Positions 43,589-45,121 of a DNA stretch of 64,000 nt are shown piece by piece (within the stretch, counting starts at the first letter, position 1; every line of letters starts with the position of its first letter). Under the pieces are notes generated by a model. The model saw only the letters and a program-made list of their open reading frames with translations. It did not search any database and was not told where the DNA came from. Source of the DNA: a virus; IMG/VR virus record IMGVR_UViG_3300035001_000008, positions 61,756 through 125,755 of that record. One strand, 5' to 3'. A program made the translations under genes and the position numbers.

Positions 43589-43690
43589 CTACACAGACTA
43601 ATTACAGTTTGATTAAATATGCAGCAACATGTAATCAATCATTAATCAATACTAGATTAAGTGTGTATTAGTCTGTGTAGCGTTGTGTAG
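43589..43690. repeat. 14-bp perfect inverted repeat with internal ATTAATC/AATCAAT repeats (parC candidate)
   Basis: CTACACAGACTAAT(43589-602)/ATTAGTCTGTGTAG(43667-80); extra TTGTGTAG at 43683-90. Confidence 0.7.
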
Positions 43691-43696
43691 AAAGTA

Positions 43697-43990
43697 TTAG
43701 TCCTCCCTATCGTCAAAAACGTCATCCAGTGAAAAGCTAGGAGGTGTTACAGGGGTAGAATTAGATTGTTTTTGGTTAGGGGCTGTTAACCCTGTTTCCG
43801 TTAGGTCAAACACTGCTGTATTCATAGCGGCATTGCCGTATCTAATTAGCAGTTCTTTGATAATGTAAGTTTGACTCTTACCCGACGCTTTACACAGGCT
43901 GTCTAGCGTAGTTAGAGCTTTCGTATCAAAAGCATTTGTTCTATTGAAGCGAACATTAGTGAACTTGTACTTATCTGCTGGGGTAGTCAT
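43697..43990 (-). CDS. ParR-like ribbon-helix-helix adaptor (97 aa)
   Basis: Beta strand FTNVRF then two helices (ALTTLDSLCK..SQTYIIKELLIRY), flexible acidic tail; 6 nt downstream of the ParM-like gene. Confidence 0.7.
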   Translation of the reverse strand: MTTPADKYKFTNVRFNRTNAFDTKALTTLDSLCKASGKSQTYIIKELLIRYGNAAMNTAVFDLTETGLTAPNQKQSNSTPVTPPSFSLDDVFDDRED

Positions 43991-43996
43991 GGTAGA

Positions 43997-45064
43997 TTAC
44001 AGTGTTGGGTTAGCTAGAACGTGGGCATTGATTACTTGAGCAAACGTGTCAGGATAGTCATTGCTCTTAGGAATGAAGAATCTACCTTCTGTCATCTCTT
44101 CCATAACCTCAGCATGGTAAGCACCGCCTCCAACTAGAAGCACTTCGCCTAGCTGCTCACCGAACCACACTTCTTTGAGAAGATAGCGGCCTAAAGCTTT
44201 GAACCACTTCAACCGTTCTTGGTCGTAAATATCGTGAAAATAGTAATCATTGCCTGAATGCGTATACATAAAAGGATTACTAGGATCGTTCTCAGCAGTA
44301 AAACCTTCCTTGCGGTACTTTAGACCCGCTTCTATTGCTGTCATGATTACAGCCTCATCTAGGCTTTCAGATAGTCCATTATCCTGCTGAATACGATAAG
44401 CAATACCCCGTGCAAGGTCGTTAAGTCCTTTTTTATGCTGGCTAAGCTTCCAGTTAATGCGGCCACCTGGCGAGATAAGCCTAGCCGTCATAGCCCCGCC
44501 ACCAAAGTCAATAATGCCTTGTGATCGGCTAGGGAACTTAAAAGCGTTGTTTGTGATTGCCCACATATAAGGAGGTAGCCCCTCAGGAATCAAAGTAACT
44601 TTGTCTATCCGTACAGACCATGAATCCTGCCGATATTGAAATTTAATGGTTTGGCCATCTAGCAAAGTTTTGAATTTTTCCCAACTCTTATTACGGTGAT
44701 CTTCTACCAACACTCGCAAATTAGAGATTACTGGGGTCTGCACTTGAAACCCTACTTGAGCAATCACAGCCATAACCATAAGGTGTGATTTATTGCTTTT
44801 ACCTTCCTTAAACATAGGAGGGCAATTTAGTTGCTTTGCCCGTTCTCCAATAACGTAACGCCGACCTTCATAGGTGATAACTACAGACTCAGGCTTGTTC
44901 AATTCTTCCTGATATTGCTGTTCATCCTGAATCTCACCGATGTAAGAAGGCATACGCTTTACGTTGCCATAAGCATCTACCCACTTAACGTAAGCGTTAC
45001 CAGGATCAAACCCCAAAACATCCATTTTGCCAATAGTCGGCATTTCATCCTTTTTAGTAGGCAT
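43997..45064 (-). CDS. parM: ParM/StbA-family actin-like ATPase (355 aa)
   Basis: Phosphate-1 GFDPGNAYVK, connect-1 IPEG, phosphate-2 IIDFGGG, adenosine VLLVGGGA, connect-2 AQVINA. Confidence 0.9.
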   Translation of the reverse strand: MPTKKDEMPTIGKMDVLGFDPGNAYVKWVDAYGNVKRMPSYIGEIQDEQQYQEELNKPESVVITYEGRRYVIGERAKQLNCPPMFKEGKSNKSHLMVMAVIAQVGFQVQTPVISNLRVLVEDHRNKSWEKFKTLLDGQTIKFQYRQDSWSVRIDKVTLIPEGLPPYMWAITNNAFKFPSRSQGIIDFGGGAMTARLISPGGRINWKLSQHKKGLNDLARGIAYRIQQDNGLSESLDEAVIMTAIEAGLKYRKEGFTAENDPSNPFMYTHSGNDYYFHDIYDQERLKWFKALGRYLLKEVWFGEQLGEVLLVGGGAYHAEVMEEMTEGRFFIPKSNDYPDTFAQVINAHVLANPTL

Positions 45065-45087
45065 AATTTCCTCATTAAATAGTATTG

Positions 45088-45121
45088 CTACACAATGTAA
45101 GATTATTAATCACTTTGTGTA
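45088..45121. promoter_or_regulatory. parMR promoter region with CTACACAA/TTGTGTA inverted repeat
   Basis: CTACACAA-TGTAAGATTATTAATCACT-TTGTGTA, same motifs as 43589-43690. Confidence 0.55.

Follow-up and report, generated by a model that had tools for sequence, protein, structure and literature searches.

The DNA considered here is a stretch of 64,000 nucleotides (nt) from a virus (IMG/VR virus record IMGVR_UViG_3300035001_000008, positions 61,756 to 125,755), which is called the window throughout. It contains a predicted two-gene operon, parMR, consisting of a parM-like gene and a small gene in the position of parR, here termed the adaptor gene, and on both sides the operon is bordered by short repeat boxes. 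An earlier reading of the letters of the window, the original prediction, had taken this locus as the ParMRC partition system of a cyanobacterial prophage which persists as a plasmid. The locus, its relatives, and the contig to which the window belongs were analysed computationally. The features of the locus are as follows.

43997 to 45064, minus strand: parM-like gene, encoding a 355-amino acid (aa) ParM/Alp actin-fold ATPase, assigned from Pfam, PHROG and a structural model
43697 to 43990, minus strand: adaptor gene in the ParR position, 97 aa, with a predicted N-terminal ribbon-helix-helix (RHH), a variable linker and an acidic C-terminal motif SLDxxFDD
45080 to 45125, minus strand: upstream block of 46 nt, identical in five loci; candidate ParR operator or part 1 of parC
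43571 to 43693, minus strand: downstream repeat cluster; candidate part 2 of parC, or operator for the promoter of the gene that follows, or both

The parMR operon and its repeat boxes

The product of the parM-like gene is matched by the Pfam family ALP_N (PF17989) above its gathering score (E=5.4e-12, 46.6 bits, cut-off 26.3) and by the PHROG family phrog_691, 'partition protein' (E=3.8e-20). Relatives of the protein were drawn from a library of 1.84 billion representatives, which holds 100 related clusters at E<=1e-3 and 4 at 1e-30, and an alignment of 66 rows was used for a profile, for conservation counts, and for an AlphaFold2 (AF2) model. In the PDB the profile found the ParM proteins of pSK41 (6.8e-19) and R1 (6e-7) and, likewise by sequence, pCBH ParM, CorM, Alp12, and AlfA. 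The AF2 model reached a predicted local distance difference test score (pLDDT) of 91.4 and a predicted template modelling score (pTM) of 0.88. Among the Foldseek matches listed for this model, through rank 26, all were ParM, Alp, CorM, or Ta0583 chains with E values from 8e-18 to 1.5e-12, comprising CorM, Ta0583, pSK41 ParM, B. thuringiensis ParM, Alp7A, R1 ParM, Alp12, and pCBH ParM. The protein contains the stretches D20-P-G22, E161, D186-F-G188-G-G, and G312-G-G-A315, which we take, going by R1 ParM, to be the phosphate 1, catalytic, phosphate 2, and adenosine motifs of nucleotide binding. Glycine 22, glutamate 161, and glycines 188, 312, and 313 are invariant in the 66 homologues, and aspartate 20 is conserved in at least 90% of them. 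Because of the profile matches, the neighbours of the model fold, and these near-invariant nucleotide motifs, ParM is by fold and motifs a real and intact actin-type (type II) partition ATPase, as had been proposed. There is no second parM copy elsewhere in the source assembly.

The ParMR lineage is rare and divergent. Four protein clusters of close ParM homologues are known, all of them on short metagenome contigs. No close relative of ParM was found in 52 genomes of the same genus or in about 400 of the same phylum, where only distant homologues occur (E 1e-11 to 1e-22); a tblastn search of known phages yielded no match to ParM, and neither did searches of IMG/VR, genome contigs, and metagenome contigs. 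An invariant 34-mer was also without a match in viral, metagenome, and genome collections. The nearest annotated relatives detected by tblastn are ParM/StbA proteins encoded on plasmids of Calothrix, Nostoc, Allocoleopsis, and Oscillatoria, with 25-28% identity.

For a closer comparison four metagenomic relatives, whose ParM proteins are 71-90% identical, were fetched with their flanks, and five loci including the window were compared. Synonymous sites are saturated in both genes (proportion of synonymous differences, pS, about 0.6-0.9), and the proportion of nonsynonymous differences (pN) is 0.05-0.11 for parM, where pS is about 0.7, and 0.05-0.10 for the adaptor gene. The adaptor gene starts 6 nt past the parM stop codon, and an orthologue of 93-104 aa directly follows parM in all four of the close related loci. 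In the alignment of these close loci the N-terminal strand YKF.NVRF and residues 36-52, a helix region (SGKSQTYIIKELLIRYG), are invariant, the linker is variable, and the acidic tail is conserved. A structural model of the adaptor from the Atlas (pLDDT 0.52) has RHH proteins of the CopG, TraY, and CopB type as its neighbours, with template modelling scores of 0.43-0.51, and a sequence search of the PDB with the adaptor gave no match. An RHH fold of the adaptor is plausible but weakly supported. Its layout is what would be expected of a ParR whose tail contacts ParM, by analogy with the R1 ParR-ParM pair (PDB 4a62); a complex prediction for ParM plus adaptor scored 0.01 and is evidence neither way. 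A small gene follows parM also in three distant loci (L031-L033). With hhalign no significant similarity was found between the adaptor profile and these small genes, as is expected for fast-evolving ParR proteins.

Within the upstream block a -10-like AATAAT is enclosed by the inverted boxes TACACAA...TTGTGTA, and there is an inner palindrome, GATTA-A-TAATC. A sigma-70-like parM promoter has its -35 element at 45130-45125 and its -10 element at 45107-45102, and the arms of the upstream inverted repeat extend over 45075-45098 and 45112-45135. Inverted boxes around the -10 element of parM are in the classic location of an autoregulatory operator. On the other side of the operon the arms of an inverted repeat lie at 43576-43602 and 43667-43693, with a perfect 14-nt core at 43589-43602 and 43668-43681 (CTACACAGACTAAT / ATTAGTCTGTGTAG); TACACA is found again at 43662 and 43684, and the spacer contains GATTAA/TTAATC words. 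The 29 nt from 43571 to 43599, with a TATAAT inside, are identical in all four loci which cover that stretch, and the TATAAT adjoining the inverted pair probably serves the next gene. The inverted pair itself has A..T in the window and G..C in three relatives, that is, one two-sided change with the pairing kept. The genes and motifs of the original prediction are found at the places given there, among them the CTACACA(A/G) inverted repeats on both flanks, but the site at 45121 is a one-mismatch copy, ATACACAA.

These blocks stand out from their surroundings. Only 15% of the third codon positions do not vary among the aligned parM coding sequences, and no stretch without variation exceeds 8 nt there, compared with 46 nt in the upstream block. 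CTACACAR occurs nine times in the window, against 4.4 expected, with four of the nine in the two operon flanks; the 535 bp of flanking DNA contain TACACA 6 times, where 0.27 copies would be expected (Poisson P about 4e-7, for a motif chosen post hoc). Neither the 14-mer nor the upstream box recurs within the 125-kb element to which the locus belongs. In L033, a distant locus from the same metagenome whose ParM is about 30% identical, ATACACY is found 10 times where 0.78 copies would be expected; every copy is in one of the flanks of the parMR pair, 3 upstream and 7 downstream, and a 22-bp tandem pair is among them. Because L033 shares the two-sided layout of the boxes, this layout is a conserved feature of the ParMR lineage.

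A two-part ParR-binding site bracketing parMR is therewith plausible on sequence grounds. Of the split parC of the original prediction, the constrained boxes on both sides and the same layout in L033 speak for a reasonable hypothesis; a regular iteron array was not part of what was found, as a search for arrays of at least four iterons at the window locus revealed only inverted pairs and scattered boxes. Three other readings of the noncoding blocks were considered and set aside. An RNA structure formed by the downstream inverted repeat has too little support, with a single two-sided change in a long stem; a classical terminator lacks its T-run; and recombination 'boundary sequences' are less likely, as identity falls on both sides of short symmetric blocks.

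Integration of the element into the host chromosome

The window is part of a contig, C36, of 255,358 bp in a 5.9-Mb assembly which is 99.97% complete. The host genome carries 13 phycobiliprotein genes and is therefore that of a cyanobacterium, as had been supposed. On this contig the following features were located, with attL and attR denoting the left and right attachment sites and int the integrase gene.

C36:106147 to 231433: prophage of about 125.4 kb, of which the window is the right-hand 64 kb (C36:166435-230434)
C36:106025 to 106146: attL, one copy of a 122-bp perfect direct repeat, at the left transition in guanine plus cytosine (GC) content, overlapping tRNA-Phe(GAA)
C36:231434 to 231555: attR, the identical 122 bp at the right GC transition, with a truncated tRNA copy
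C36:106299 to 107462: int, encoding a 387-aa tyrosine recombinase and starting 153 bp inside attL (PF00589, 38.3 bits against a cut-off of 27.1)

GC content drops from about 56% in the rest of the contig to about 39% across 106.2-231.4 kb; it is unusual for temperate phages and their hosts to differ by 17 points. Host DNA, with 56% GC and orthologous to that of relatives, is found on both sides of the element within the one contig. The att repeat spans nt 1-43 of tRNA-Phe, through the anticodon stem-loop, together with 79 bp upstream. It is the 5' part of the tRNA gene which is covered by this identity block, ending right after the anticodon stem. The two places concerned are L001:10995-11146, which corresponds to C36:105995-106146, and L005:6434-6555. 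Such blocks usually cover the 3' part of a tRNA. After integration the phage therefore supplies the 5' half of tRNA-Phe and its promoter.

An empty site was looked for by blastn with the flanks. Two genomes of the same genus, G412 and G407, contain a complete tRNA-Phe plus the 79 bp upstream, contiguous with the genes of the right flank. A left neighbour of pentapeptide-like type has the same spacing in G412, and both flanks are thus shown in this genome only. In G407 the DNA to the left of tRNA-Phe is not syntenic with the left flank of the prophage in its own genome (G000). An ABC-type probe from the left flank belonged to a paralogue family and was uninformative alone. The non-syntenic DNA beyond tRNA-Phe in G407, the closest relative (G407:C15, L028:5125-17146), may be another island at the same tRNA.

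The element is thus a prophage integrated at tRNA-Phe, and its lysogenic state in this genome is chromosomal. It reaches 60 kb beyond the left end of the window; attL, int, and attR are all located outside the window. The statement that no integrase lies in the window was literally correct, as the window spans only half of the element, but it does not extend to the element as a whole, where the tyrosine integrase gene adjoins attL. Nor do the ends of the contig overlap, and there is host DNA on both sides of the element. When depth is taken from the Logan contigs of the run that is probably the source, the host flank has 845-899 and the prophage 955-968; this ratio of about 1.1 fits one chromosomal copy. 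Another run, X2, contained only scattered pieces at low depth, from which nothing follows on the habitat. With att repeats, an integrase, and an empty site in relatives, the element shows the very integration with att sites which the original prediction had named as its refutation, and the proposal that the prophage persists as a plasmid is not supported.

The remainder of the phage and the neighbours of the operon

The element combines virion and replication genes with the partition cassette and is siphovirus-like and complete-looking. Its landmarks in the window and the two genes next to parMR are listed here.

7708 to 9294, minus strand: large terminase subunit (TerL)
48600 to 50600, minus strand: PolA
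51309 to 54026, plus strand: primase (primase-helicase)
57960 to 60284, plus strand: ribonucleotide reductase (RNR)
43157 to 43501, minus strand: next gene downstream of parMR, 114 aa; relatives have a 176-aa T5orf172/MUG113-type gene here
45405 to 46133, plus strand: divergent neighbour, 242 aa, weak DUF7381 match; syntenic in the relative L007, with 61% identity

To the left of the window there are lambda-like tail genes L and J and genes for a tape measure, a major head, and a portal protein. Helicases, a methylase, homing endonucleases, and two tRNAs are also carried by the element. The phage is distant from those described so far, its TerL being at most about 40% identical to theirs. The tape measure protein (L002:3212-12169, minus strand) has 2985 aa with an embedded endolysin-like segment and implies a very long tail. 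Mobile-element and tRNA features, located at L003:15452-15600, L003:16842-18035, L002:13848-15395, L003:770-1894, and 9284-10198 of the window, comprise tRNA-Arg(TCT), tRNA-Met(CAT), an IS-type transposase, and two HNH-type endonuclease genes, and a GIY-YIG/NUMOD3 homing-endonuclease-like gene adjoins the large terminase gene. A stand-alone gene for an EAL-domain protein (cyclic di-GMP phosphodiesterase; Pfam 2.1e-52) is found at 32016-32807 on the plus strand. The plus-strand gene at 11271-12164, near the terminase genes, encodes 297 aa with a ParB helix-turn-helix match exactly at threshold; no ParA partner was seen, and it is therefore probably not a second partition system.

Likeness between the product of the next gene downstream of parMR and the 176-aa protein of the relatives is limited to the first 22 residues or so. 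Between the downstream promoter-like block and this gene a small palindrome lies at 43540-43555 (TGTGATTCAAATCACA; TGTATCGCGTTATACA in the relatives L007, L009, and L010), which has been kept through three two-sided changes and may be a second operator or a hairpin in the 5' untranslated region. Directly downstream of the parMR cassette, at 39989-42849 on the minus strand, there are genes for a 149-aa N-anchored protein, a 201-aa protein with multiple transmembrane segments, and an ATPase of 579 aa. Neither Pfam nor PHROG gave a match for the ATPase, whose neighbours in the Atlas are cyanobacterial HerA/FtsK-like clusters with scores of 0.96-0.98. A link of this ATPase and its neighbours to parMR is possible.

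Another palindrome, TCTAAYRTTAGA, occurs with at most one mismatch at 16 sites in the window against 1.3 expected, among them 36021-36032, 43150-43161, 50652-50663, and 54030-54041, and looks like a phage-wide operator. It marks many of the other cassettes, but none of its sites is at the parMR promoter, the nearest being 43150-43161 at the start of the next cassette. Its absence from the parMR promoter is compatible with an independent, autoregulated expression of the operon, although the timing of expression is not fixed by it.

Proposed role, alternatives and significance

The explanation favoured here, to which we give a rough probability of 60%, is that the locus is a ParMRC-like DNA-positioning module of a large temperate cyanophage integrated at tRNA-Phe, and that it acts on extrachromosomal phage DNA. 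For this module we infer DNA binding by the adaptor, contact between adaptor and ParM, filament formation, and the timing and purpose of its action. By analogy with known systems the small RHH-type protein would bind the TACACA boxes as dimers. The inverted pair straddling the -10 element of parM would give autoregulation, with the larger cluster situated just past the operon. The resulting nucleoprotein complex would capture ATP-dependent ParM filaments, probably via the acidic C-terminal tail of the adaptor, and filament growth would move or anchor the circular phage DNA. Because the lysogenic state is chromosomal here, the module would act only on the extrachromosomal genome. This may happen during replication after excision or infection, as for AlpACS of the prophage CGP3; alternatively, a transient low-copy episome may be kept from loss at cell division, as by SrpMRC in the SXT/R391 family of ICEs (integrative and conjugative elements).

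In CGP3 of Corynebacterium glutamicum, AlpA binds the alpS repeats upstream of alpAC, alpA and alpC are induced early, the excised prophage replicates fully only with both genes, and deletion of either halves the amplification of phage DNA (PMC4446434). AlpACS and the present system have in common a large prophage at tRNA genes with att sites and an integrase (PMC4446434, PMC5539076), an actin-like gene with a co-transcribed small DNA-binding adaptor (predicted here), and short repeats in the promoter region of the operon. The action of AlpACS on excised circular phage DNA is what is proposed here by analogy. The two differ in the host phylum, in the gene order, which is adaptor then actin in CGP3 and actin then adaptor here, and in the repeats, as alpS consists of about 24 copies of TTAAnnG upstream only, whereas here about 6 TACACA boxes form two flanking clusters. 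In the second system the repeats bound by SrpR, four in number and 13 bp long, lie upstream of srpM, and SrpMRC stabilises the transient excised form of the SXT/R391 ICEs, the only form for which it is needed (PMC4489591). SrpMRC too is a type II M-R-C module with the order M then R on a carrier whose resting state is chromosomal (PMC4489591). Its carrier, however, is an ICE and not a phage, no downstream repeat cluster is described there, and srpMR is co-transcribed with int under the control of SetCD, whereas here about 104 kb separate parMR from int, which is at the opposite end of the element. With plasmid ParMRC systems (R1, pSK41, pCBH) and cyanobacterial ParM/StbA the locus shares the ParM fold and motifs, the parM-parR operon, and repeats over the promoter; it differs from plasmid ParMRC in its carrier, an integrated prophage, in its fewer and less regular repeats, and in the second cluster downstream. 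A two-sided centromere is found in the type Ib par2 locus of plasmid pB171 (parC1/parC2), and we know of none in a type II system.

Some observations weigh against the favoured explanation. The gene which the original prediction had called RHH ParR-like is in the ParR position, but its match to the Pfam family RHH_1 (E=0.0014, 18.9 bits) falls just below the cut-off of 20.5 bits. The boxes, about six in two clusters, are fewer and less regular than the iterons of R1 (two sets of five 11-bp repeats) or pSK41 (four 20-bp repeats) and may be plain operators. The downstream cluster overlaps the -10-like TATAAT of the next gene and may be a control site for that gene instead of a centromere. Furthermore, a minor episomal population may coexist with the integrated form, as the Logan contigs were built with k=31, shorter than the 122-bp repeat, and cannot tell attL/attR from attP/attB.

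One alternative is that the element is a true phage-plasmid or leads a dual life, with ParMRC segregating it as a low-copy plasmid which is its main or its second form; what the contig shows as integrated would be only one state of two, or else the assembly would have passed through the 122-bp identity of attP and attB. We consider this unlikely. That the ParMR cassette is complete and under selection, with its cis sites constrained, would suit such a life, as would its position next to the PolA and primase genes of the element, and a parMR promoter without the phage-wide operator fits autonomous autoregulated expression. The contigs are silent on which junctions exist because the repeat exceeds k. 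The assembled contig nevertheless runs in the order host-att-phage-att-host, att is duplicated and the second copy of the tRNA is truncated, the integrase adjoins attL, the site is empty in relatives, and no second copy of the element was found elsewhere in the assembly. Read depth can be taken either way: the prophage is about 10% above the host flank, but a ratio near 1 fits a single chromosomal copy and the excess could be due to GC bias.

A little less probable still is a regulatory and cytoskeletal module which does not segregate DNA, where the adaptor only represses two promoters and ParM acts on the host cell in the manner of CorMR, its filaments being directed to cell shape, division, or membrane organisation. 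CorM of Anabaena sp. PCC 7120 (PDB 9rmi), a cyanobacterial ParM-derived actin with a role in cell shape (10.1101/2025.06.27.661541), is the best PDB match of ParM by sequence as well as by fold, with an identity of about 17%. CorMR, however, is a chromosomal cell-shape system of the host, CorR binds membranes and not DNA, and corMR has no parC-like repeats (10.1101/2025.06.27.661541), whereas boxes and an RHH-like N-terminus are present here. The disordered N-terminal region of CorM comprises 40 aa (10.1101/2025.06.27.661541), that of the AF2 model of ParM only about 12 residues. There is also a weak match to the cyanobacterial morphology actin FcmB, but its 33.9 bits are far under the cut-off of 300 bits. 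In favour of this reading both box clusters overlap -10-like hexamers; the nearest plasmid-borne relatives, on the other hand, are annotated as ParM/StbA on cyanobacterial plasmids.

Similarly improbable is a life cycle with two lysogenic modes, in which the phage would either integrate at tRNA-Phe or persist as an actin-segregated low-copy episome with a two-part centromere bracketing parMR. The module, the adjacent membrane proteins, and the FtsK/HerA-like ATPase encoded at 39989-42849 would then possibly move phage DNA within or between cells, and an episomal mode, if true, could be useful in polyploid or filamentous cyanobacteria. A plasmid-derived cassette which hitch-hikes or is decaying, and which does nothing for this phage at present, would agree with the rarity of close homologues (four clusters on short metagenome contigs, none among the 52 same-genus and 400 same-phylum genomes) and with the replaced or truncated downstream neighbour gene, but it is highly improbable in view of two intact reading frames, the full set of nucleotide-binding motifs, strong purifying selection across lineages with saturated synonymous sites, and perfectly conserved cis blocks.

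Under the favoured explanation of a DNA-positioning module on an integrated phage, the kind of system is already known, since actin-type ParMRC-like modules on integrated mobile elements have been described (PMC4446434, PMC4489591), which weakens the novelty that had been claimed. Worth noting are the two-sided layout of the boxes and a cyanophage as the carrier. The case also calls for caution: since an element can extend past the window, a partition cassette seen there with no integrase is not enough for a phage-plasmid. In genomes of cyanobacteria, prophages that are intact and bounded by att sites are still uncommon. The adaptor and its boxes form a compact pair which is testable because the noncoding blocks are invariant amid saturated synonymous divergence. 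The module would extend actin-type DNA positioning on integrating elements, for which there had been one actinobacterial prophage and one family of ICEs, to the cyanophages.

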